From: Clostridia bacterium
GTDB taxonomy: Bacteria > Bacillota > Clostridia > TANB77 > CAG-508
NCBI GenBank assembly: GCA_017511265.1
Contig: JAFWKV010000022.1
Location: 1 to 63,689 of the forward strand
Length of the DNA: 63,689 nucleotides
Direction of reading: 5' to 3'
Below, in pieces: positions 11,597-48,875 of this stretch. Position 1 is the stretch's first letter. Every line of letters begins with the position of its first letter. Under the pieces are notes generated by a model that was not told the DNA's origin, ran no database searches, and worked only from the letters and a program-made list of their open reading frames with translations. Both the position numbers and the translations under genes were made by a program.

Positions 11597-12286
11597 TTGA
11601 AAAAATTAAATAAAAGGAAAATAATAATAGGAAGTATTTTAATAGTAACAGGCATAGTATTAACAATAATATTGCTTAAAAACAATGAAGTGGAAGCACT
11701 TTCAAAATATGGTTCAAGAGGAAGTGAAGTAAAAACTATACAAGATAAATTAAAAAGATGGGGATATTATAATGGTAGTGTAGACGGAATTTATGGTTCT
11801 AAAACAGTAGCAGCTGTAAAAAAATTTCAACAGAAAAACGGATTAACTGTAGATGGAATTGCAGGACCTAAGACCCTTGCAGCAATGGGAATAAATTCAA
11901 GTAGTTCAGGAAGCAGTGGTAGCTCTGGAAGTAATGCTTCTGATATTACACTACTTAGTAAGCTTATTTATGGAGAAGCAAGAGGAGAGCCATATACAGG
12001 ACAAGTTGCTGTTGGTGCTGTAATAATGAATAGAGTAAAAAGTAGTTCTTTTCCTAATACTATTGCTGGGGTAATATATCAACCTGGTGCATTTGATGCT
12101 GTTTCTGATGGACAAATTAATATGACTGCAAATAGTACTGCAAAAAAAGCTGCACAAGATGCAATGAATGGATGGGATCCTTCTTATGGAGCGATTTATT
12201 ATTTTAATCCGAGTACAGCAACTAATAAGTGGATTTGGTCAAGGCCTATGACTGTAACTATTGGAAAACACAGATTTTGCAAGTAA
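11597..12286 (+). CDS. sleB: spore cortex-lytic enzyme SleB-like (PG-binding + Hydrolase_2)
   Basis: PG_binding repeats (DGIYGSKT, VDGIAGPKT), GEARGEPYTGQVAVGAV, IGKHRFC; TTG start after AAGGTGA. Confidence 0.85.
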   Translation: MKKLNKRKIIIGSILIVTGIVLTIILLKNNEVEALSKYGSRGSEVKTIQDKLKRWGYYNGSVDGIYGSKTVAAVKKFQQKNGLTVDGIAGPKTLAAMGINSSSSGSSGSSGSNASDITLLSKLIYGEARGEPYTGQVAVGAVIMNRVKSSSFPNTIAGVIYQPGAFDAVSDGQINMTANSTAKKAAQDAMNGWDPSYGAIYYFNPSTATNKWIWSRPMTVTIGKHRFCK

Positions 12287-12334
12287 AACTAAATAAAAAA
12301 TAGTATAATTGCTTTTTTATAATGTTTATATAAA

Positions 12335-12493
12335 ATAACTTAAGGTTGATATTATAAATAAAGAAAATCTGCGTAAGCGACCAAACGAGCGAAGCGAGTG
12401 CGATTGGAGCAAGCTACAGACTAGTGATTTTTTAGTTCGTAGCTTGCGACACACAAAGATTTTCGTATTTATAATATCAACACTTAAGTTATA
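12335..12493. repeat. long-armed palindromic element between convergent genes
   Basis: ataacttaaggttgatattataaata...aaatct / agattt...tatttataatatcaacacttaagttat; inner gcaagctac/gtagcttgc stem; core cgagcgaagcgag. Confidence 0.85.
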
Positions 12494-12521
12494 ATGATAA
12501 TTTAGTAAAAAAGCAATTATA

Positions 12522-13259
12522 CTATTTTTTATTTAGTTCTACGGCACTTTCTAGTGCTAACTTAATCATATTGTTTAAGCCTTTTTCACGTTCTTCAGCA
12601 GTAGCTTGAACAGGCTTATCAGAATTTAAATCGACAACACTCATTAAGCAAGCAGCTTTTTTGTCAAGAACTTTAGCTGTATAAAATAAAGCAAAAGCTT
12701 CCATTTCTACACCTGATATTGTAAGCTCATTAGGAACTCTCTTTAAAAGTTCATTAGAACCAGTAGTGATATATGAATCAAAACAATCTGTACATAAAGT
12801 AGTACCATTTAATAATTTAATATTCATTTCATTTGAAGTAGCTGAAATTATATTATTTAGGTTTGAATCAGACTGTACTAGATGACAATCTTCATTATTC
12901 ATTGTTAAAGCAAAATTGCTTTCTGAATAAGTCTGCTCAGATAATATAATATCAAATAATTTTAAACTAGTGTCATAACCACCACATGAACCAATACGGA
13001 TTATATTTTCTACATTATAAAATTTATATAATTCATAACAATATATACCCATGCTAGGCATTCCCATCCCAGATGCCATAACTGTTAATTCAGTTCCTTT
13101 ATAAGTTCCTGTATAAGCATAGATATTTCTAACAGAATTTACTAATTTATAGTTGTCCAAAAAATTTTCTGCAATATATTTTGCTCGCAATGGGTCACCT
13201 GGCATAATTACAGTTCTTGAAATATCTCCCAAATTTGCTTGATTGTGAGGAGTAGACAT
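12522..13259 (-). CDS. deoD: purine nucleoside phosphorylase DeoD-type
   Basis: MSTPHN, PGDPLRAKYIAE, GMGMPS, IRIGSCG, VEMEA motifs. Confidence 0.93.
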   Translation of the reverse strand: MSTPHNQANLGDISRTVIMPGDPLRAKYIAENFLDNYKLVNSVRNIYAYTGTYKGTELTVMASGMGMPSMGIYCYELYKFYNVENIIRIGSCGGYDTSLKLFDIILSEQTYSESNFALTMNNEDCHLVQSDSNLNNIISATSNEMNIKLLNGTTLCTDCFDSYITTGSNELLKRVPNELTISGVEMEAFALFYTAKVLDKKAACLMSVVDLNSDKPVQATAEEREKGLNNMIKLALESAVELNKK

Positions 13260-38758: not shown

Positions 38759-39120
38759 ATGAACAATACATTATATAGTATAGCAGGAATTTTAATACCT
38801 TTTTTAGGTACAACTTTTGGTAGTGGATTTGTATTATTTTTAAAAAAGAACTTGAATGGAAAAATACAAAAGTTAATTGTTGGATTTGCGGCAGGTGTTA
38901 TGATAGCTGCAAGTATATGGTCATTAATACTTCCATCTGCAGAGCTTGCAGAAGAACAAGGAGTTGTGGGATGGCTACCACCAGCTATTGGATTTATATT
39001 AGGAATAGTGTTTTTGATTATAACAAATTATATTGCAGATAAAATTGCAAAAAGAAAAAGCGGAAAAAAACTTAATATGCTTATGTTTTCGGTTACACTA
39101 CATAACATTCCAGAAGGAAT
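38759..39120 (+). pseudogene. ZIP (ZupT/GufA-like) metal transporter, 5' part, interrupted by integrative element
   Basis: GFAAGVMIAASIWSLI, TLHNIPEG; similarity stops at 39120. Confidence 0.92.
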
Positions 39121-39557
39121 TGCCCTAATTAGAGTGAAGCCAGTTTTTGCAAGGCTTTGAGGTGCTATAAGGAATTGCCCAAATTAGAGTGTAAATTGAA
39201 ATTGCTTGGAAAATAGTTTGGATTTACAAAAAGGACATGTAATGGAAAATACAAAACATAAAAACTTATACTGCAGTCTATGTTTTTAGAGACGAAAATG
39301 CTGAATTGGATGAGTGAAATCCAAAATTTGGAGGCTTTAACACATCCAAAATGGCATTTTTTTTATACTTTTGTTTTGGAGGTTTTAGTAGCATTCAAAA
39401 TACTAAAAAATAAACAAAAGCTCAAAAAACATTGTTTCTTGTTTAAAGGATAAGATACAACAAAAGAAAAAGCAGTGCAAAAAGTACATATTTTTATGTA
39501 TATTACCGGAATTTACTTTTATATTTAAGGGGTGAATACAAATTTTTGTAAAAAACA

Positions 39558-39586
39558 TTGACATAATACAAATCACATGATATTAT
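39558..39586 (+). promoter_or_regulatory. SigA promoter with extended -10 driving precursor peptide
   Basis: TTGACA-N17 (with TG)-TATTAT. Confidence 0.7.
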
Positions 39587-39621
39587 AAGAGCGTAAAATC
39601 TTAGTAAGGAGGAAACTTATT

Positions 39622-39702
39622 ATGAGAGAAAACGATAACGAAAACCAAAATGAACTTGAAGAAATCACATCTGTAAGCTGCGGAACATGTGATATTAATT
39701 AA
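39622..39702 (+). CDS. putative RiPP precursor peptide, 26 aa MRENDNENQNELEEITSVSCGTCDIN
   Basis: AAGGAGG SD, promoter upstream, hairpin downstream, acidic leader + CxxC core; first gene of rSAM cluster; below ORF-track cutoff. Confidence 0.8.
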   Translation: MRENDNENQNELEEITSVSCGTCDIN

Positions 39703-39708
39703 TTATGG

Positions 39709-39754
39709 AGATACCTATAATTTTGATGTTTAAATTATAGGTATCTAATTTTTT
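39709..39754 (+). terminator. hairpin/attenuating terminator after precursor gene
   Basis: agatacctataattt-8nt-aaattataggtatct followed by a T-run. Confidence 0.75.
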
Positions 39755-39764
39755 AGGATGGTAA

Positions 39765-40349
39765 ATGTATATGAATATTATACTAAATTTAGATAATTTA
39801 CTAAAAAGTGATGAAACGAACCAATTAATTTCTGTAAAAATTCTAATAACTCATAATAAAATTTCATCAGAGTATAAAGGAATTTTCAAATCAACAGATA
39901 TAAATTTAAAGACAGATATTGAATTTGCTGAAAATGAAAAATACAGTATAGTTTTTAGCATAGTTATTTTAGGAAAGCAAATTGTTAAAGAAAAATATTC
40001 TTTTGTTTATAAAGAAAACCTAAGCTATCAAATTAAAGATGGAAAAATAAATCTTAAAATTATGAATAAAAATATGGAAAACAGTATAAAACCAATTTTT
40101 AATATAACTTATAGAACATATAATAATTATAATTTTAAAATTAATCCACTAGCAATTATTAGAAAAGAAGATGATAATAAAGAAACCATTTTTTTTAGTG
40201 ATAATGTTTATATTATAAGAGACAAGCTCATGGAAATAATTAATAAAATACATTATAATAATAAATTTAAAGAAGACATTGAAAAATATAAAAAAATTGA
40301 ATCAATCAATTTATTAATATCGAAAGGGTGCATTATTTGTTATGAATAG
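39765..40349 (+). CDS. hypothetical protein, C-terminus possibly RRE/PqqD-like
   Basis: Overlaps next gene; C-terminal strand-strand-strand/helix pattern ending LLISKGCI resembles RRE folds (inference). Confidence 0.6.
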   Translation: MYMNIILNLDNLLKSDETNQLISVKILITHNKISSEYKGIFKSTDINLKTDIEFAENEKYSIVFSIVILGKQIVKEKYSFVYKENLSYQIKDGKINLKIMNKNMENSIKPIFNITYRTYNNYNFKINPLAIIRKEDDNKETIFFSDNVYIIRDKLMEIINKIHYNNKFKEDIEKYKKIESINLLISKGCIICYE

Positions 40350-41346
40350 TGATTTGATTATAAATACTTCAAATTATCCATTTTCTGTAGGATGGGCAAT
40401 TACTAATAAATGTAATCTACATTGTATACATTGTAATATGAATAGCGGAAGTGCATTAGAAAATGAGTTAACAAAAGAAGAATGCTTTAGAATTATTGAT
40501 GAATTAAGTTTTAACAATGTTCAAAAAATTTGCTTTTTTGGAGGAGAGCCTTTAGTAAGAAATGATTTTTTTGAAATAGCAAATTATGCAGGAAAAAAAG
40601 GAATATTTGTAAGCTTTACAACAAATGGATTATTAATTGATGAAAATATGATTGATAATGAATTATATAAATTTGAACTTATAAGAGTTAGTTTAGATGG
40701 ACCAACGCCAGAAACACATGAGTTTATTAGAAATTTAAAAGGTTGCTTTGATATAACAGTAAATAATGTAAAAAAAATGACAGAAAAAGGTATTAGTGTT
40801 GGGATAGTTACTTGTATTTCACATAAAAATATAAATTATATTGAAGAAATGATTAGCTTTTTAGAAACTTTAAAAATAAAAAGATGGTTTATACCTATAT
40901 TATCTGCTGCTGGGAGAGGAAGCAATATTGAAAAAGAAATTCTTACTCCAGAAGAGGTAAAACAATTGTTAATAAAACTTGAAAAAATAGCTATAGATAT
41001 AGACTTTTCGATAAACTTAGATTTACCATATTCAACATTACTAAAGGATAAAAATAATAAAATAAAAGCTTCTTGCCCAGCTGCTACAACAGAATTAGCT
41101 ATTTTTGCCAATGGAGATGTTTCACCATGTTGTGAAATTCCTATAATGGGGGGAAATTTAAGGACAAAATCTATATCTGAAATTTGGAATAAAAGTAAAG
41201 TGTTTGTAGACTTCAGAAATAGAAATTTAATAAAGGGTAAGTGCAAAAATTGTAAATATATTAAAAATTGTGGTGGATGCAGAGCAAATGCATACATAAA
41301 ATACGGAGACTATATGCAGGGAGATGATGTATGTTGGAAAGAATAA
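40342..41346 (+). CDS. radical SAM/SPASM domain protein 1
   Basis: CNLHCIHC, GGEPL, TTNG, SLDG; SPASM CPAA..GDVSPC..CKNC...CGGCRA..C. Confidence 0.95.
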   Translation: MNSDLIINTSNYPFSVGWAITNKCNLHCIHCNMNSGSALENELTKEECFRIIDELSFNNVQKICFFGGEPLVRNDFFEIANYAGKKGIFVSFTTNGLLIDENMIDNELYKFELIRVSLDGPTPETHEFIRNLKGCFDITVNNVKKMTEKGISVGIVTCISHKNINYIEEMISFLETLKIKRWFIPILSAAGRGSNIEKEILTPEEVKQLLIKLEKIAIDIDFSINLDLPYSTLLKDKNNKIKASCPAATTELAIFANGDVSPCCEIPIMGGNLRTKSISEIWNKSKVFVDFRNRNLIKGKCKNCKYIKNCGGCRANAYIKYGDYMQGDDVCWKE

Positions 41347-41546
41347 ATATTGAAGAATACAGATTTAGAGAAGAAGGAGAGAATTTATTATTAGCTTTTA
41401 ATGTTATAACATCAGAAATGTTCTTTTTAAAAGGCAAAAGCAAAGACTATATTATTTCATTGTTAAATAACAGCAAATACGATGGAAAAATCAATAGAAA
41501 AAATCTTGAAATGTTAAAAGACAAAAAAATAATCTTAGGAGGATAA
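41331..41546 (+). CDS. small PqqD/RRE-like peptide-binding protein
   Basis: 71 aa, FREEG..LLAFNVITSEMFFL...LKDKKII pattern; wedged between rSAM genes. Confidence 0.6.
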   Translation: MLERINIEEYRFREEGENLLLAFNVITSEMFFLKGKSKDYIISLLNNSKYDGKINRKNLEMLKDKKIILGG

Positions 41547-41548
41547 AA

Positions 41549-42547
41549 ATGGAGTACAAGAATATGAATGTTACGATTGATGTAACTTCAAGATGTAATT
41601 TAAGATGTAAACATTGTAGGGTTAATGAAATTGAATATGATATGACATTAGATGAAATTGAACAAGTTTTTAAAAAGCTAAATAATTTTAAACCTAGAGG
41701 TGTATTCATAAGTGGTGGTGAACCATTAATTAGAGATGATATAGCTGAAATTGTAAAAAAATCAAAAAAATTAGCTCCAGTTACAGTTTTAAATACAAAT
41801 TCATTGCTATTAACAGAGAATAAACTAAAAGAATTAATTGATGCAGGACTGAATTATATTCAAGTTAGTTTAGATGGTATTGAGGAATTACATGATTATA
41901 TTAGAGGAAATGGAACATATAGAGAAACTATATCAAAAATGAAAATGATAAATAAATATTCTGGACAAATAAATTTGCATATTAGCAGTGTTGTATCACT
42001 AAAAAATATAGATTTTATGGAAGAATTTGCTCGACAAATTCTTGAAGTTGAAAAAATAAATGTGCAAATTTTAGGTTTTAAACGCTTTATACCTAATAAT
42101 GTGCTAAGAGATAGTGCATCATTAGGAAAAGATGGACTAAAGAAATTGTATCAAAACCTTGAATTACTGCAAGAAAAATATGAAGGAAAAACAATAATTG
42201 CATCAGATATGCCAATGAAGAATGTTTTTAATGAAAAAAAAGCGCATGAAATTATGGAAAAATATAATTTAGATTGTGTAGGGTGTTCTGCTGGAGTAAA
42301 TGGAATAAGTATTAGAAATGATGGAACTGTAACTCCTTGTACATTGTTATATATATCATGTGGAAATATATTAAAACAAAATTTAGATAAAATAATGCAG
42401 AATGCAGACATGATTAAAATAAAAGAACGTGAATTAAAAGGTAGATGCGGAAAGTGTAAATATAAGCAGCTTTGTGGTGGCTGCAGAGCTGCTGCATATC
42501 AAATATCAGGAGATTTTTTAGAAGAGGATTCGGAGTGTTTTATATGA
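41549..42547 (+). CDS. radical SAM/SPASM domain protein 2
   Basis: CNLRCKHC, SGGEPL, NTNS, SLDG; CSAG...GTVTPC...CGKC...CGGCRA..C. Confidence 0.95.
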   Translation: MEYKNMNVTIDVTSRCNLRCKHCRVNEIEYDMTLDEIEQVFKKLNNFKPRGVFISGGEPLIRDDIAEIVKKSKKLAPVTVLNTNSLLLTENKLKELIDAGLNYIQVSLDGIEELHDYIRGNGTYRETISKMKMINKYSGQINLHISSVVSLKNIDFMEEFARQILEVEKINVQILGFKRFIPNNVLRDSASLGKDGLKKLYQNLELLQEKYEGKTIIASDMPMKNVFNEKKAHEIMEKYNLDCVGCSAGVNGISIRNDGTVTPCTLLYISCGNILKQNLDKIMQNADMIKIKERELKGRCGKCKYKQLCGGCRAAAYQISGDFLEEDSECFI

Positions 42548-43491
42548 TAGAATTAAGTGCACCAATTTCTGTAGTTTGGGAAATTACAAATAATTGCAAT
42601 TATAAATGCCCTCATTGCAGAGCATATCAAGAATATAATAAAGAAAATAAGAAAATAGAAGATAGTATTATTAAGGATTTGATAGATTCCAAAGTTATGT
42701 TTGTTAACTTGTCCGGAGGTGAGCCTCTATTAAATCCAAGAATCTTTGAAATAGCAAAAAAATTATATAGTAACAATATATATATTGCATTATCAACTAA
42801 TGGATCACTTTACTCAAAATATAGAGAAAAAATTGTCAATTCGGGAATAAAACTTATACAAGTATCTTTGGATGGTAAGAAAGAATTGCATGAAAAATTT
42901 AGAGGGATAGAAGGATCATATGAAAAAGCTATAGAAGCATTAAAAATGGCTAAAGAGGATGGATTAAGAACTCAAATGAATGTTACGATTACATCAAGTA
43001 ATATTAATGATTTAAAATGGAATTATGAAAAAGCAAAAGAATTACATATTGATAAAGTATTTTATAGAAGAGTTGTACCATACGGCAAAGCTAAAATAAA
43101 TAAATATGTTTTACCTGAAAAAAGATTATACTATGATAAAATAAAAGAATTGTCTGAACTTGATTGCGAAGATTTAAATGTATCAATAGATGATCCTATC
43201 TTAAATGTCTTAAATAACAAAGAAAACATAGAGTATATTGCGTGTGGCGCAGGGATTAATAATTTAGGAATATCAAGCGAAGGAGACATATATCCTTGCA
43301 TTTTTTTAAGAGAAAGATTAGGAAATATAAAAACAGAGAAATTAAAGGATATTTGGAATAATAGTGATATTTTAAAAAAATTAAGAAATAGAGATATAGA
43401 AAAATGCGGAGAATGTGAATATAAGTATAGTTGTGGTGGTTGTCGAGCTTTTTCTGGAATTAATAAAAAAGACGAGTTTTGTCCGCTTTAA
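42544..43491 (+). CDS. radical SAM/SPASM domain protein 3
   Basis: ATGA overlap; CNYKCPHC, SGGEPL, STNG, SLDG; CGAG...GDIYPC...CGEC...CGGCRA..C. Confidence 0.95.
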   Translation: MIELSAPISVVWEITNNCNYKCPHCRAYQEYNKENKKIEDSIIKDLIDSKVMFVNLSGGEPLLNPRIFEIAKKLYSNNIYIALSTNGSLYSKYREKIVNSGIKLIQVSLDGKKELHEKFRGIEGSYEKAIEALKMAKEDGLRTQMNVTITSSNINDLKWNYEKAKELHIDKVFYRRVVPYGKAKINKYVLPEKRLYYDKIKELSELDCEDLNVSIDDPILNVLNNKENIEYIACGAGINNLGISSEGDIYPCIFLRERLGNIKTEKLKDIWNNSDILKKLRNRDIEKCGECEYKYSCGGCRAFSGINKKDEFCPL

Positions 43492-43510
43492 TTTATGGAG
43501 GTTATAGAAA

Positions 43511-44020
43511 ATGTCAATTTATCCTAAAAATATTAGTAATGGTGAAAATGTAATAATTCATTTAAGATTTTCTAATAAAAGCAAAATAATCCAAAAGATT
43601 AGATATGTACTATCTGTTATAGATCCTGATGAAAATCAAGTGTTTTTAAAGGAAGATAATTTAGTTTTGGGTGTAGAAAAAGAGGAATTTGTAAAACAAT
43701 TATATTATTCTTTAGAAATAGATGGAAATTTTAAACCAGGAAAATATATTGTACAGTTTTATCTTGTTTGTAAGGGACATATTATAGAGTCAGTTACTAA
43801 AGATAATGATTTCTTTTTTGTAGAGAAACTTGAGTACTATTACTCCAATGAAAAAACAGTTATAACAAATATTTCTAATGAAAAAATTAAATTTAAATTG
43901 CATGAAGGATTAAATATAGAAGAATTAACAATTAATGGTAAAGAAAAAATTGAATTAGAAGGAAAATATGATTATATTGAATATGCAAATAATAAAATTG
44001 ATTTAATAGAAGAAAAGTAG
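43511..44020 (+). CDS. hypothetical beta-rich protein in rSAM cluster
   Basis: GGAGG SD; alternating strand pattern, PGKYIVQ; no family recognised. Confidence 0.7.
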   Translation: MSIYPKNISNGENVIIHLRFSNKSKIIQKIRYVLSVIDPDENQVFLKEDNLVLGVEKEEFVKQLYYSLEIDGNFKPGKYIVQFYLVCKGHIIESVTKDNDFFFVEKLEYYYSNEKTVITNISNEKIKFKLHEGLNIEELTINGKEKIELEGKYDYIEYANNKIDLIEEK

Positions 44021-44059
44021 AAATTTAGTTAAATTTTAATTTTTAAGGGAGATAAAAAT

Positions 44060-44884
44060 ATGCTTATTGATTCACATATTCATCTTGGAAACAAAAAAGA
44101 ATGTGAAGAGATTATTAATAATTCAAGATATAAAAATAAATATAAAATATACTCTTGCATTAATCCTAAGACAATTGATGGAACAGATATTTTTTTAAGA
44201 GATGTTGATGGTTTTTTCGCAATTCCATTGTTTTTCTGTGAGACTGATATAGAAAAAGCAAATACAGAGTTGATTAATCGTGTAGAAAACGATTCTAGGG
44301 CAATACCTATTTTATTAATGTGTAAAAATGAAAATTTAAATAATTTAATTTTTTTATTAAATTATAATATACTTAAAGAACATTTTACATTACACAATCC
44401 TCATGATATTTCAGATAGAAATGAAACATATGATTATTTAAATAGTAAAGGTGGATTTTTATTATTACATACATTGTCAAGTAGTACATATCAACATGTT
44501 ATTACTTTGCGAAAGCAATATCCAAAAATGAAAATAATTGTTGCACATTTAGGCAGAGATGGAAAATGTGATTACGATTTTACAACTGATATGATTGATA
44601 AATTACATTCTGATGAAAATATTTATACTGATATATCAACTATTCAAAATCCTAAATTGATAAGGTATGCATTTAAAAGGTTTGGAAGTTCGAGAATTCT
44701 ATATGGATCTGATTTTCCATTTGAAAGAACTCCCGGTATAAAAGAAGAAGACTATATTCAACCTGCTATAAAAGCGAATTTAAAAGGCTATGAATATGAT
44801 GACTTATTTTATAGAAATGCAGAAGAAATTATAAGAACAGCTTATATAGAAAAAGGGAGGGATAAGGATGGAATGGAACATTGA
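44060..44884 (+). CDS. metal-dependent amidohydrolase (TIM barrel, Amidohydro_2-like)
   Basis: IDSHIH, LLH, VAHLG, YGSDFP. Confidence 0.9.
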   Translation: MLIDSHIHLGNKKECEEIINNSRYKNKYKIYSCINPKTIDGTDIFLRDVDGFFAIPLFFCETDIEKANTELINRVENDSRAIPILLMCKNENLNNLIFLLNYNILKEHFTLHNPHDISDRNETYDYLNSKGGFLLLHTLSSSTYQHVITLRKQYPKMKIIVAHLGRDGKCDYDFTTDMIDKLHSDENIYTDISTIQNPKLIRYAFKRFGSSRILYGSDFPFERTPGIKEEDYIQPAIKANLKGYEYDDLFYRNAEEIIRTAYIEKGRDKDGMEH

Positions 44885-45371
44885 AAAAAGTAAAAAGGAG
44901 GATTGTAAATTAATTGTAGAGTTTATAACAAAAGTATGGAGCGAAACTTATAGAGGCATTATAAATGATAATTTCCTTGATAGTTTAAAGCAGACAGAAG
45001 AAGATAGATATATTAATGCAATTAATAAATTTGATGAAAAAAATAATATGGAATATATAATAAAGGAAAATAATGAAATAATTGCTTTCTCAAAATTAGC
45101 TAAAACAAACGATATGCACGGAAAAAATATAGAGTTACAATCACTTTATGTTTTAAAGGAATATCAAAACAGAGGAATAGGAAAAAAATTAATACAAAAT
45201 GCTTTTAAAAAAGCAAAAAAGTTAGGATACAAAAAAATTATAGTAGGATGTTTAGAGAATAATAAATCAAATGATTTCTATAAGAAAATCAATGGAAAAT
45301 ATATTGGCAAAAGAGAATTTAAGTTGCCAAATCAAACTTTATACGAGAATGTATATGAATATAATATATAA
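44868..45371 (+). CDS. GNAT family N-acetyltransferase
   Basis: LYVLKEYQNRGIGKKLI acetyl-CoA motif, N..FYKK. Confidence 0.92.
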   Translation: MEWNIEKSKKEDCKLIVEFITKVWSETYRGIINDNFLDSLKQTEEDRYINAINKFDEKNNMEYIIKENNEIIAFSKLAKTNDMHGKNIELQSLYVLKEYQNRGIGKKLIQNAFKKAKKLGYKKIIVGCLENNKSNDFYKKINGKYIGKREFKLPNQTLYENVYEYNI

Positions 45372-45401
45372 ATATAAAAGTATTATTGGAGGAAAATTAA
45401 G

Positions 45402-46319
45402 TTGTCTAATTTATTTAGAGTTGCTTTGTTACAATTAAATAGAACAAATAATGAGCAAGATTCTTTAATAAAAGGAGTAGAGTACTGCAGAAAAGCAAAA
45501 ACATTAGGTGCTGATATTGCTGTATTTCCTGAATCATGGAATAATGGTTATGAAATGTTATTTGAAGGTTTTGCTAAGAAAAATATGAATGTTTCAAAAG
45601 ATACTTTTGATAAATGGAGAGGTAAAGCAATTGATGAAAACAGTACTTATATAAATACTTTTAGAAGTTTAGCCAAAGAATTAGATATGGCTATTGCAAT
45701 TACATTTCTGGAAAAAGGCAATTATTTACCTAAAAATAGTGTCATTATTATTGATAGGTTTGGTAATAAGGTTTTAAAATATTCTAAGGTACATACAGTT
45801 GATTTAAAAATGGAAATGTTTGTAGAGCCAGGAAAAGAATTTAAAGTTTGTGATTTGAATTATAAAAATGGTATTATTAAATTGGGCACAATGATCTGCT
45901 TTGATAGAGCTTTTCCTGAAAGTGCAAGAATTCTAATGATAAAAGGTGCTGAAATAATATTAGTTCCAAATGCTAGTGTACTAACCAAAATTAGATTAAA
46001 TCAGTTGAAAGTAAGAGCTTACGAAAATGTAACTGGAATAGTAACTGTAAATTATGCTAATTATGGTGGTAAGTCGTCTGCTTTTAGTCCTATAGTTAAA
46101 GATGATGAACTTAATGATGTTAATAGTGAATTATTGATTATGGATTATAAAGAAAAAATAGAAGTGGTTGATTTTAATATGGATGAAATAAGAGAATATA
46201 GAAGCAGAGAGCCTCTTGGTGATGCATATAGAAAACCTTATGCATATAAAGAAATATTAAGCAAAGAAGCAAAAGAACCATTTATAAGAGATGATTCAAG
46301 AAGAAATTATTTCAATTAA
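45402..46319 (+). CDS. carbon-nitrogen hydrolase (nitrilase superfamily)
   Basis: VFPE, YSKVH, ICFD catalytic Glu-Lys-Cys triad. Confidence 0.93.
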   Translation: MSNLFRVALLQLNRTNNEQDSLIKGVEYCRKAKTLGADIAVFPESWNNGYEMLFEGFAKKNMNVSKDTFDKWRGKAIDENSTYINTFRSLAKELDMAIAITFLEKGNYLPKNSVIIIDRFGNKVLKYSKVHTVDLKMEMFVEPGKEFKVCDLNYKNGIIKLGTMICFDRAFPESARILMIKGAEIILVPNASVLTKIRLNQLKVRAYENVTGIVTVNYANYGGKSSAFSPIVKDDELNDVNSELLIMDYKEKIEVVDFNMDEIREYRSREPLGDAYRKPYAYKEILSKEAKEPFIRDDSRRNYFN

Positions 46320-46320
46320 G

Positions 46321-46356
46321 TTTTAGGATATACTGTAAACAGTATATCCTAAAAAA
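46321..46356 (+). terminator. terminator ending the cargo operon
   Basis: ttttaggatatactgt-aa-acagtatatcctaaaa. Confidence 0.75.
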
Positions 46357-46675
46357 TGTACCTAATGTTAGAGAATTCTTCATCAAAATATATAATTGAT
46401 ATCCAACTATTATATTTTTATGCCAAAATCTGCCTAAATAAAAAAGTCAAGTATGCAAAATTACCTTGTGTTCTTGATTTTTTTATTATCATAAGTGATA
46501 GTGCAAAATTAAAAAATGTAAAAAAGTTTGAAACTATGAAAAAAAGTTTTTTTAAAATAAGGGGGGGACAAAATTGACTTTTGTGAGCAATTAAGTGAGG
46601 GAGATAAAATATACAATTGGATAGTAATATTTATGTAACTATAAAATATATATCAAATAGGAAGGCAGGTTTTTT

Positions 46676-46783
46676 ATGGAGAATGAATTCAAAATTAATG
46701 TGTTTTTTTGCAATGATGGTGAAAAATTAGAAAAACTATTGGCAGATTACTTGTTTTCTGTTATTAAGACAAAGATTAAATAA
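46676..46783 (+). CDS. putative 35-aa protein upstream of recombinase
   Basis: GGAAGG/AGGT SD-like then MENEFKINVFFCNDGEKLEKLLADYLFSVIKTKIK. Confidence 0.4.
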   Translation: MENEFKINVFFCNDGEKLEKLLADYLFSVIKTKIK

Positions 46784-46895
46784 TATTTATGCTTAAAAAT
46801 TTGAATTTATGATAAAACAATTGATATTTTAATAAAGAAAAGTTATAACAACATTATGAATTCAAATTATTTTTTCAAGCATGGAAGGAGGAAAA

Positions 46896-48464
46896 ATGCT
46901 TGAAGAAATTATTAGAAAAACATATAAAATAGCCATATATATAAGACTATCAAAAGAAGATGAAGATAGAGGATACGATGAAAGTGAAAGCATAACAAAC
47001 CAAAAAACATTATTATTAGAATACGTTGAAAAACTTGGACCCAATTATGAACTTGTTGATGTTTATACTGATCCAGGATATACAGGAACAAATTTTAATA
47101 GACCAGATTTTAAAAGAATGATAAATGATATTAATTTAGGAAAAGTAAATATGGTCATCACAAAGGACTTATCTCGTTTAGGACGTGATTACATAGAAAC
47201 AGGAGAATACATTGAAAAATGGTTTCCAGAAAATAATATAAGGTATGTTTCTGTAACAGATGGAATTGACACGTTTTCAGAAAATAATGGAAACAACGAT
47301 ATAGCACCTTTTAAGTCAATTCTAAATGATATGTATTCTAAAGACTTATCTAAAAAAATAAAAACTGCTTTACATACTATGCAAGCTCAAGGCAAGTGGG
47401 TAGGGGCTAAAACCCCATTAGGTTATATAAAAGATCCTAATGACAAAAATAAACTTATAATTTGTGAAGAAGAGAGCAAAATTGTAAAAATAATTTTTGA
47501 TATGGCTTATTCTGGAAAGAATATAGGTAAAATTAAAAATTATCTAAATGATAATAATGTTCCTACTGCATATCAGTTAAGATATAACAAATTTACATAT
47601 TGGAATAGTAAAACAATAAAAAGAATGTTAACTAATCCTGTATATAAAGGAGTTACAGTTCAAAACAAAATGAGTAGAATAAGCTATAAAAATAGAAAAA
47701 TTCGTCCTAATCCCGAAGAACAATGGTTTATAGTAGAAAATACACATGAGCCAATTATAGAACCTTCAAAATTTGATAGCATACAAAAAATGAGGATAGC
47801 TCAAAACTATGGTAGAGCAGAAAAGAAAAACTACTTTTTATTAGAGGGATTAATGATTTGCTATGAGTGTAAACATAAAATTGGAGTAAAAAAAGATAGA
47901 AATACTTGGGAAATGATGTGTAATAATTATCGCAGATTTTCAAAACTAAAAGTTTGTACTGCTCATGGATTTAGTTATATAAAATTTGAAGAGTTGATTC
48001 TAAGATACTTAAAGAAAATTTTTGAAAATATTGATAATGATAAAATTGAATCAAGTATTAAAAATAGCAAATCCTCAATAGATTATACTAAAATGCAAGA
48101 AAAAATAAAAAAAGATATAGTCGTGATGAATGGCAATATTGATAAAATGTATATGGATAAGCTTAATAATAAAATAACTGAAGAAATGTATGAAAGATTA
48201 TATAACAAGATACAGAGAGGTATAAAACTAAAAGAAAAAGAATATTTAGACTTAGAAAAAACAAAAAACAATTCATTAAAAGACAAAGATGAAGATATAA
48301 AAAAATTAGTTAAGGAATATCTTTCACTAGAAAAACCAAAGCCAGAACTAATGAAACTACTTATTAATAGAATTGAAATACATCAAGACAAGCAGATAGA
48401 TATATATTTTAATTTTAAAAAATTAAATGAACTTAAGGAAAATTACACTCTAAATCAGACATAA
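46896..48464 (+). CDS. large serine recombinase (resolvase + recombinase + Zn ribbon + coiled coil)
   Basis: AIYIRLS catalytic Ser, KDLSRLGRDY, GLMICYEC; stop codon abuts attR. Confidence 0.95.
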   Translation: MLEEIIRKTYKIAIYIRLSKEDEDRGYDESESITNQKTLLLEYVEKLGPNYELVDVYTDPGYTGTNFNRPDFKRMINDINLGKVNMVITKDLSRLGRDYIETGEYIEKWFPENNIRYVSVTDGIDTFSENNGNNDIAPFKSILNDMYSKDLSKKIKTALHTMQAQGKWVGAKTPLGYIKDPNDKNKLIICEEESKIVKIIFDMAYSGKNIGKIKNYLNDNNVPTAYQLRYNKFTYWNSKTIKRMLTNPVYKGVTVQNKMSRISYKNRKIRPNPEEQWFIVENTHEPIIEPSKFDSIQKMRIAQNYGRAEKKNYFLLEGLMICYECKHKIGVKKDRNTWEMMCNNYRRFSKLKVCTAHGFSYIKFEELILRYLKKIFENIDNDKIESSIKNSKSSIDYTKMQEKIKKDIVVMNGNIDKMYMDKLNNKITEEMYERLYNKIQRGIKLKEKEYLDLEKTKNNSLKDKDEDIKKLVKEYLSLEKPKPELMKLLINRIEIHQDKQIDIYFNFKKLNELKENYTLNQT

Positions 48465-48473
48465 CCAGAAGGA

Positions 48474-48875
48474 ATGGCAGTAGGTGTATGTTTTGCTGGA
48501 TTTTTATCAGGAAATACAGGAATAACATTAATGTCAGCAATGGCATTATCAATTGGAATAGGACTCCAAAATATACCAGAAGGAGCAATTATTTCTATAC
48601 CTCTAAAATTACAAGGAATGAATAAAGGAAGAGCGTTATTATATGGGATTTTGTCAGGGATAGTTGAACCAATTGCAGCATTTATTACAATATTATTGTT
48701 AAATATTGTAGTACCACTATTACCTTATTTATTATCATTTGCAGCAGGTGCAATGATTTATGTAGTAGTAGAAGAACTAGTTCCAGAAATGCACGAAAAA
48801 AACAAATCAATTTTAGGCGTAGTAGGTGTAACGATAGGATTTGTTGTTATGATGGTTATGGATATGGCACTGTAA
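48474..48875 (+). pseudogene. ZIP metal transporter, 3' part
   Basis: (PEG)MAVGV...IGLQNIPEGAII...FAAGAMIYVVVEELVPE; in frame with the 5' part after excision. Confidence 0.92.

Follow-up and report, generated by a model that had tools for sequence, protein, structure and literature searches.

Ranthipeptides, represented by freyrasin (PapA/PapB) and SCIFF (SCIFF/CteB), derive from small Cys-bearing precursors with an acidic leader that are modified by SPASM maturases; in freyrasin, PapB joins a Cys sulfur to the beta-carbon of Asp within a C-X3-D motif. The mycofactocin (MftA/MftB/MftC) and PQQ (PqqA/PqqD/PqqE) pathways combine a short peptide that is conserved at its extreme C-terminus with a stand-alone RRE protein and a SPASM enzyme of about 330 aa without a fused RRE. 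Multi-maturase sactipeptide systems, including those for thuricin CD (TrnC/D) and ruminococcin C (RumMc1/2) as well as StsB, contain several SPASM genes per operon and are found in gut Firmicutes. Additionally, the borrelidin, obafluorin and microcin C clusters offer a comparison for the accessory genes discussed below. BorO and ObaO are second ThrRS copies in the borrelidin and obafluorin clusters, and both compounds inhibit ThrRS. Microcin C targets AspRS, and immunity is conferred by the GNAT enzyme MccE and likewise by MccF.

The window analyzed here, 63,689 nt of contig sequence, carries a cassette that resembles each of these systems in part. With the ranthipeptides it shares the small Cys-bearing precursor with an acidic leader, SPASM maturases and a C-X3-D motif, and a carboxylate-bearing acceptor, the free C-terminus included, would be possible. 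In contrast to them, its enzymes fall under the PapB cut-off, its peptide matches neither SCIFF nor another NCBIfam model, a single 7-residue core with a non-invariant Asp takes the place of repeated motifs, and three paralogous enzymes are accompanied by three discrete proteins of predicted RRE type. The short peptide with a conserved extreme C-terminus, the stand-alone RRE and the enzymes of about 330 aa recall mycofactocin and PQQ, and a downstream hydrolase could release the product. Unlike these pathways, the cassette has a CxxC[D]xN core instead of GVY or E..Y, three enzymes with scores under the cut-offs, a GNAT or an MFS/PP-loop pair instead of MftD/E/F or PqqB/C, and a sporadic, mobile distribution. 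As in the multi-maturase sactipeptides, Cys is the likely donor, and rSAM1 matches the StsB model at 144 bits (cut-off 625); whereas those systems use one enzyme per peptide, long multi-Cys cores, fused RREs and dedicated proteases and ABC exporters, the cassette pairs one tiny peptide with three enzymes. Finally, several lineages have an extra ThrRS gene that accompanies the cassette, the conserved GNAT and hydrolase recall microcin C immunity, and the peptide ends in an invariant Asn, as does MccA. However, the island on the source contig has no ThrRS, an MccB-type adenylating enzyme is missing, and the link to ThrRS is correlative.

The small putative precursor gene and its homologues

An earlier note on this DNA had proposed a hidden 26-aa precursor peptide with CxxC and C-X3-D motifs, preceded by an AAGGAGG Shine-Dalgarno sequence and an extended -10 SigA promoter and followed by a 15-bp stem. 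The ORF is present exactly as claimed, and all of the accompanying signals were located in the sequence:

39558-39586, plus strand: sigma-70/SigA-type promoter, a consensus match only (-35 TTGACA at 39558-39563, 17-nt spacer, TG at 39578-39579, extended -10 TATTAT at 39581-39586)
39606-39612, plus strand: Shine-Dalgarno sequence AAGGAGG, 9 nt 5' of the precursor ATG; comparably strong sequences precede the homologous ORFs
39622-39702, plus strand: putative precursor peptide gene, from ATG 39622 to TAA 39702, 26 aa, MRENDNENQNELEEITSVSCGTCDIN
39652-39666, plus strand: conserved ELEEI within the putative leader (approximately residues 1-16)
39670-39699, plus strand: putative core (approximately residues 17-26), SVSCGTCDIN, with Cys20 at 39679-39681, Cys23 at 39688-39690, Asp24 at 39691-39693 and the invariant C-terminal Asn26 at 39697-39699
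39709-39754, plus strand: terminator-like hairpin and T-run, between the precursor and the enzyme genes

The segment C20-G-T-C23-D24 contains CxxC as well as C-X3-D, and the peptide is encoded in a single copy across its own genome. The promoter agrees with the consensus at 11 of 12 positions and carries the TG element; it is the sole strong site within 39100-40000 in a motif scan of these 900 nt, in which promoter-like matches as a class numbered 5 against 5.6 expected from shuffles. The 15-bp stem of the hairpin (39709-39746) starts 7 nt past the stop codon and is followed by AA and TTTTTT (39749-39754). It folds at -18 kcal/mol (z -3.8), and none of 200 shuffled sequences was equally stable.

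For comparison, DNA around rSAM1, the first enzyme gene of the cassette, was collected from relatives in species genomes (L001-L023) and metagenomes (L024-L056). About 64 clusters with 42-100% identity make up the rSAM1 family, a compact group that a gap separates from the next proteins, which are archaeal, at most 38% identical and of different length. Conservation of the peptide ORF beside orthologous rSAM genes had been named beforehand as a test, and it holds: in 26 orthologous loci, a homologous small ORF with a strong Shine-Dalgarno sequence occupies the same place, some 600-700 nt upstream of rSAM1. These loci encode 21 distinct peptides, for example MEEKELEEVVSVSCGTCDIN, MQNNAEKVKAQEEQELKEICAINCGTCDVN, MTEDKKVEEQKLLEEIEEISKVVCMKCDVN and MNDKNLAIKFEEKESKNEEKELLDQIEELARLQCEKCDVN. 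The small ORF occurs in all orthologous loci with enough upstream DNA, Tepidibacter thalassicus alone excepted.

The homologues share the motif EE[IVL]-x2-[VIL]-x-C-x2-C-[D>N,S]-x-N-stop and support the division of the peptide that the earlier note had drawn, with an acidic leader followed by a C-terminal core rich in Cys. Their N-terminal part varies freely in length and sequence while retaining its acidity, and conservation is focused on the last seven residues, at a fixed distance to the stop codon. The two Cys residues and the terminal Asn are invariant, and so is the distance of each from the free C-terminus. C-X3-D is retained in 24 of the 26 loci; Asp24 is replaced by Ser in L005 and by Asn in L035, in cassettes that are otherwise intact. 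At the invariant or conserved residues, synonymous codons alternate (TGC and TGT for both Cys, AAT and AAC for Asn, GAT and GAC for Asp), and the Leu, Ser and Val codons likewise vary with the residue unchanged, which shows that selection acts on the protein sequence. It is this conservation, and not the motif scans, that marks the ORF as more than a chance reading frame, and the alignment of its homologues confirms 39622-39702 as a genuine, conserved gene.

The layout around the stop codon is conserved as well. Of 21 related loci, 19 have a stable hairpin (z < -2) at this position, its sequence being unrelated from locus to locus, so that the order of promoter, precursor, hairpin and enzyme genes is a trait of the family. 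The proposal of the earlier note that such an arrangement serves to make more precursor than enzyme mRNA fits this positional conservation.

Public data already list longer variants of the peptide as 'hypothetical protein'; one of them occurs on over 1000 contigs. For rSAM2, a single variant appears in 1154 index blocks, and the cassette as such is frequent in gut metagenomes and gut bacteria. The precursor gene of the source contig is below the length that gene callers find. Without it the operon would read as three anonymous 'radical SAM proteins', and with it as a testable RiPP pathway.

The most distant cassette, in Tepidibacter thalassicus DSM 15285 (L014), stands apart: an ORF of the CxxC...N type is absent from both the locus and the genome. 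An ORF with a leader-like start (MSSELEEM...) is found at 4611-4736 of that locus, lacking a Shine-Dalgarno sequence and Cys residues, and the region 5141-12880 encodes a p169-like protein with an RRE tail, three rSAM enzymes, an MFS transporter, AsnB and a GNAT.

Cassette genes and the island that carries them

A conserved gene order was obtained by tblastn searches of the proteins against the loci, namely peptide, p194, rSAM1, p71, rSAM2, rSAM3 and p169, usually followed by the amidohydrolase and the GNAT, and it is kept across loci at 42-86% identity. On the source contig, the cassette and its surroundings comprise the following features:

39110-39120, plus strand: left 11-bp direct repeat CCAGAAGGAAT, where the 5' half of the ZIP/ZupT gene (38759-39160) meets the island
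39771-40349, plus strand: p194, with an N-terminal beta-sandwich and a C-terminal RRE-like domain (both predicted); overlaps rSAM1 by 8 nt
40342-41346, plus strand: rSAM1, radical SAM/SPASM enzyme with CX3CX2C at C24/C28/C31 and seven SPASM Cys
41331-41546, plus strand: p71, stand-alone RRE of PqqD-like fold (predicted model)
41549-42547, plus strand: rSAM2, radical SAM/SPASM enzyme
42541-43491, plus strand: rSAM3, radical SAM/SPASM enzyme; ATG 42541 fits the homologues, and the ORF is open from TTG 42472
43511-44020, plus strand: p169, conserved beta-rich protein, here in a short form
44060-44884, plus strand: amidohydrolase (Amidohydrolase_2-type metal hydrolase by Pfam)
44868-45371, plus strand: GNAT acetyltransferase, kept in most cassettes
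45402-46319, plus strand: carbon-nitrogen hydrolase of the nitrilase family, island cargo found in no other cassette locus
46881-48464, plus strand: large serine recombinase, not conserved among cassette loci
48465-48475, plus strand: right 11-bp direct repeat CCAGAAGGAAT, where the island gives way to the 3' half of the ZIP/ZupT gene (48474-48875)

The three rSAM proteins are paralogues with about 30% mutual identity, and in all of them the Pfam Radical_SAM and SPASM models score above cut-off. The ten Cys of CX3CX2C and the seven SPASM positions are invariant in 14-15 orthologues of each enzyme, so that each of the three would seem capable of catalysis. An N-terminal RRE is missing from all of them, and docking domains come as separate proteins. 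One of these is p71. Leader-binding RREs are the best PDB fold matches of its AF2 model (pLDDT 93), namely TbiB1 in complex with a leader peptide (TMq 0.73-0.75, prob 1.0), the LynD and TruD RRE domains, CteB and TigE; the p71 family showed no match to PqqD in Pfam at E<=10. For p194, whose ORF is open from ATG 39765 and whose homologues begin at MNI... (39771), Pfam and NCBIfam searches gave no match. It is present in all orthologous loci, and its AF2 model (pLDDT 92) has a C-terminus of beta3-alpha3 topology. The C-terminal 70 or so residues align to p71 with an hhalign probability of 87%, and the alignment of p194 with long p169 reached 52%. A fold search with full-length p194 was set aside, as it returned weak Ig/Fn3-like matches to the N-terminal sandwich that are uninformative on the RRE part. 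Homologues of p169 in seven loci have an additional RRE-like C-terminus of about 70 aa, which p169 of the source contig lacks. The models therefore suggest up to three RRE-type domains for the three enzymes, each encoded by a gene that adjoins or overlaps that of 'its' enzyme, and the N-terminal halves of p194 and p169 are predicted to be beta-sandwiches.

The accessory genes differ more between lineages. In the amidohydrolase, H6, H8, H137, H163, D218 and other residues are invariant in nine orthologues. In L013, L034 and L080-L083, the place of the amidohydrolase and GNAT is taken by a PP-loop/Asn-synthase-like ATPase with an MFS transporter, and the Tepidibacter cassette has its MFS, AsnB and GNAT genes in their stead. 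The cassette of the source contig itself contains neither a protease nor an exporter. L080-L083 (7923-15417), with a 42-aa peptide on more than 1000 contigs, represent the commonest human-gut version; a QueC/Asn-synthase-like PP-loop ATPase and the MFS gene lie upstream of the peptide, amidohydrolase and GNAT are absent, and the locus adjoins a type I restriction-modification locus and remnants of transposases or recombinases. In three lineages, a protein of 460-485 aa is inserted between p169 and the amidohydrolase (L005, 9675-11057; L007, 8044-9501; L086, 10677-12119); Pfam gives no match for it, and between L005 and L007 its identity is about 40%. Three tandem SPASM genes with about 25-30% identity were also seen in distant loci from the Defluviitaleaceae (L016, 300-3100) and Omnitrophica (L020, 2756-6753), perhaps sister systems in which the precursors differ.

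The cassette lies on a serine-recombinase element of about 9.4 kb (39121-48475) that is inserted in a ZupT/ZIP transporter gene and bounded by the repeat CCAGAAGGAAT, for which 0.02 matches are expected by chance. None of 60 species genomes of the same genus or order carries the cassette, which indicates horizontal acquisition; in this genome, it was acquired on the serine-recombinase island. The island has a GC content of 25.4%, compared with 28.2% for the whole window, and a CGG codon in frame is absent from all eleven island genes. A 23-nt sequence, AAGGAATTGCCCTAATTAGAGTG, starts inside the left att repeat (39114-39136) and recurs 55 nt further in (39169-39191) with 96% identity; it may be a binding site of the recombinase or the trace of an earlier junction. 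The source assembly measures 1.13 Mb in 42 contigs at 86% completeness, and the carriers found are mostly uncultured gut Clostridia and Bacilli with small genomes (0.8-1.5 Mb).

Pathway assignment and possible chemistry

Two generic features of RiPP pathways are present, namely a conserved leader-plus-core precursor beside enzyme genes and an RRE fold (p71). Membership in described families was assessed with curated models. The three enzymes score 80.3, 73.8 and 102.7 bits with the PapB model NF047865 (cut-off 340), 141.9, 78.6 and 118.1 bits with MftC TIGR03962 (cut-off 265) and 111.5, 103.1 and 99.9 bits with PqqE TIGR02109 (cut-off 381); in addition, the peptide ends in CDIN and not in the GVY of MftA. 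The WgkB score of 131 bits is, like the StsB score, far below the cut-off. The best HMM matches are AhbD (206 bits), NirJ2 (200 bits) and TIGR04053 (about 200 bits), with cut-offs of 395-500. An identity as heme or heme d1 enzymes of the AhbD/NirJ2 type was rejected, as the scores remain below the 500-bit equivalog cut-off and no tetrapyrrole genes occur in the cassette. Likewise, membership in PapB, SCIFF, MftC, PqqE, StsB, WgkB, AhbD or NirJ was discarded, all scores being far under the curated cut-offs, as was an assignment to prokaryotic viperins and defence (PADLOC pVip), where 61-91 bits reflect the radical SAM core only and a SPASM domain is present. The nearest solved structures are those of PqqE and SkfB at about 59 bits, PqqE being the best. 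The peptide matched no family in NCBIfam at E<=0.01, SCIFF and other precursor models included; Rfam searches around the peptide and the linked ThrRS genes gave tRNA genes only and neither a riboswitch nor a T-box; and no description of this family was found in the part of the full-text literature that was covered, core sequences included. As judged from these comparisons, the cassette is a putative RRE-dependent radical SAM pathway of RiPP type, undescribed and belonging to no curated family tested. What appears to be new is the precursor family, the architecture of three enzymes and three RREs, and the tiny C-terminal core of about seven residues.

A leader-plus-core peptide, RRE domains and SPASM enzymes together constitute a RiPP signature, and for this reason the ORF at 39622-39702 is read as a substrate: very probably, it encodes the peptide on which a RiPP-type maturation cassette acts. 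Counterpoints to this reading are that the best HMM matches are tetrapyrrole enzymes and not peptide maturases, that every enzyme stays below the curated cut-offs, that three enzymes face two Cys, that the cassette of the source contig has neither protease nor exporter, that its p169 lacks the RRE-like tail and that Tepidibacter has a cassette without the peptide. In the proposed mechanism, promoter, strong Shine-Dalgarno sequence and a leaky hairpin would make a short precursor mRNA abundant and let part of the transcription continue into the enzyme genes. The RRE proteins would hold the acidic leader (...ELEEI...) and present the C-x2-C-[D]-x-N-COOH core to the three enzymes, perhaps with one RRE partner per enzyme, and the reactions would take place at or near the two invariant Cys and the C-terminal tail. 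The preferred guess, with somewhat less than an even chance, is that sulfur-to-carbon (thioether) bridges join Cys20 and Cys23 to residues of the tail (Asp24 and/or Asn26) and that one further modification is added, and the cross-linked product would be very small and compact. The amidohydrolase and GNAT, or elsewhere the PP-loop ATPase and MFS exporter, could then trim, tailor, export or detoxify it. The cassette is an attractive place to look for radical SAM chemistry that is new and acts on Cys or a C-terminal Asn.

The readings of this chemistry and of the ORF itself differ in how well they account for these observations. The earlier note had guessed at a ranthipeptide of PapB type; one of the enzymes would then couple Cys20, through its sulfur, to the Asp24 beta-carbon across C-X3-D. 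The retention of this motif in nearly all loci and the full SPASM domains agree with such a reaction, and in enzymes of PapB type the attacked carbon neighbors a carboxylate, with a free C-terminal residue also being accepted (PMC12373016), a chemistry that would suit the invariant Asn at a fixed C-x2-N-COOH spacing and, with the free C-terminus as acceptor, would explain why the stop codon always directly follows Asn. However, a C-terminal Asn of L-configuration was not processed by PapB in vitro (PMC12373016), the scores with NF047865 are less than a third of the cut-off, a single motif contrasts with six in PapA, and three enzymes are available for two Cys. The natural Ser and Asn variants at position 24 further weaken the Cys-Asp reading, and this chemistry remains a guess because no curated family claims the enzymes; the PapB-type link is thus rather unlikely. 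A product of mycofactocin or PQQ kind, to which only the last few residues of the peptide contribute, is a serious alternative, though rather unlikely too. Here, the RRE and the short SPASM enzymes would modify the C-terminus, the amidohydrolase would excise a piece and the GNAT would acetylate the freed amine, giving a cofactor or small antimetabolite and not a peptide antibiotic. In its favor are the stand-alone RRE with enzymes that lack a fused RRE, as in PqqD/PqqE and MftB/MftC, the MftC and PqqE scores of rSAM1 together with the PqqE structure match, the confinement of conservation to the end of the peptide, a conserved metal hydrolase and GNAT unaccompanied by a protease or ABC exporter, and, in other lineages, MFS transporters, which are typical for small molecules, with PP-loop/Asn-synthase-like enzymes. 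Against it, the same MftC and PqqE scores stay under their cut-offs, no dependent oxidoreductases were seen nearby, the sporadic, island-borne distribution better suits an accessory trait than a cofactor, and the roles of amidohydrolase and GNAT are inferences. A route of this kind and thioether formation are compatible with each other and not exclusive.

Two further readings deny that the peptide is modified. An unmodified metal- or Fe-S-binding accessory subunit, with the enzymes acting on another substrate, would be in keeping with CxxC as a common metal-binding motif, with the non-peptide (tetrapyrrole) SPASM enzymes among the best HMM matches and with the Tepidibacter enzymes that occur without this peptide; since RRE domains point to peptide substrates, the acidic leader and short core have the classic shape of a precursor and tetrapyrrole genes are missing nearby, it is highly improbable. 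Equally, a short ORF with a terminator directly behind it is the layout of an attenuator, in which a ribosome that has reached the stop codon would sit on the 5' arm of the stem. Nevertheless, a regulatory leader peptide with attenuation at the hairpin, or a chance ORF, is extremely improbable: conservation is seen at the amino acid level with synonymous changes, CxxC and the terminal Asn hold while nucleotides and hairpins differ, RRE-type docking domains are encoded alongside, and no alternative antiterminator was seen.

ThrRS genes linked to the cassette

In several lineages, the immediate neighbor of the cassette is a ThrRS gene of the same orientation, located either downstream of the amidohydrolase (L007, L009 and L011) or just upstream of the peptide (L012, L028 and L031). 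The loci L086-L088, from a very common organism of L031 type, contain both arrangements in the order RelA, ThrRS#1, peptide, p182, rSAM1, p74, rSAM2, rSAM3, p240, p480, amidohydrolase, ThrRS#2 and GNAT, so that ThrRS#1 flanks the cassette and ThrRS#2 is embedded between two cassette genes. The positions of linked ThrRS genes within their loci are:

L086-L088, 4325-6079 and 13193-14938: ThrRS#1 and ThrRS#2
L007, from 10488: ThrRS downstream of the amidohydrolase
L009, 10224-12017: ThrRS downstream of the amidohydrolase
L012, 93-1847: ThrRS upstream of the peptide
L031, 528-2282: ThrRS upstream of the peptide

In L003, a ThrRS of housekeeping type is found downstream of the cassette with a tRNA gene between the GNAT and ThrRS, and adjacency there may be coincidence. 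Among 61 relatives of the L009 genome, a second ThrRS occurs only in the two cassette carriers, and the extra copy is the adjacent one. Trees place the linked copies in two lineages that are separate from the housekeeping ThrRS of their own genomes, one of canonical appearance and the other long-branched. The long-branched lineage keeps the invariant catalytic Cys/His/His and has lost editing-domain residues that are invariant elsewhere. The idea that GNAT and ThrRS are mutually exclusive alternatives was abandoned, given that L086-L088 carry amidohydrolase, ThrRS and GNAT in a row. The source genome has a single housekeeping ThrRS, and its island has none.

We know of no RiPP-derived inhibitor of ThrRS. 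The pattern of linked ThrRS genes is that of target-copy resistance, which suggests that the product may target ThrRS. On this analogy, the cassette would make a very small, sulfur-cross-linked, peptide-derived molecule that inhibits ThrRS or is mistaken by it, with the linked genes as self-resistance copies, a speculative and rather unlikely proposal. In versions without ThrRS, such as the source island, immunity would fall to the GNAT and the amidohydrolase, by analogy with MccE and MccF for microcin C. If the proposal is true, the product would be the first RiPP-derived antimetabolite directed at ThrRS, and would come from abundant gut commensals; the co-travelling ThrRS offers a concrete target hypothesis and suits resistance-guided discovery. 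Alternatively, the linked ThrRS could protect against a Thr mimic (compare PMC13149037), have a biosynthetic role or be a hitch-hiking neighbor gene. A divergent ThrRS-like gene of 393 aa, without the N-terminal domains and with a branch length of 2.8, was also observed in the L004 genome (L066, G003:C17, 1948-3129), where it lies next to the housekeeping ThrRS and away from the cassette.
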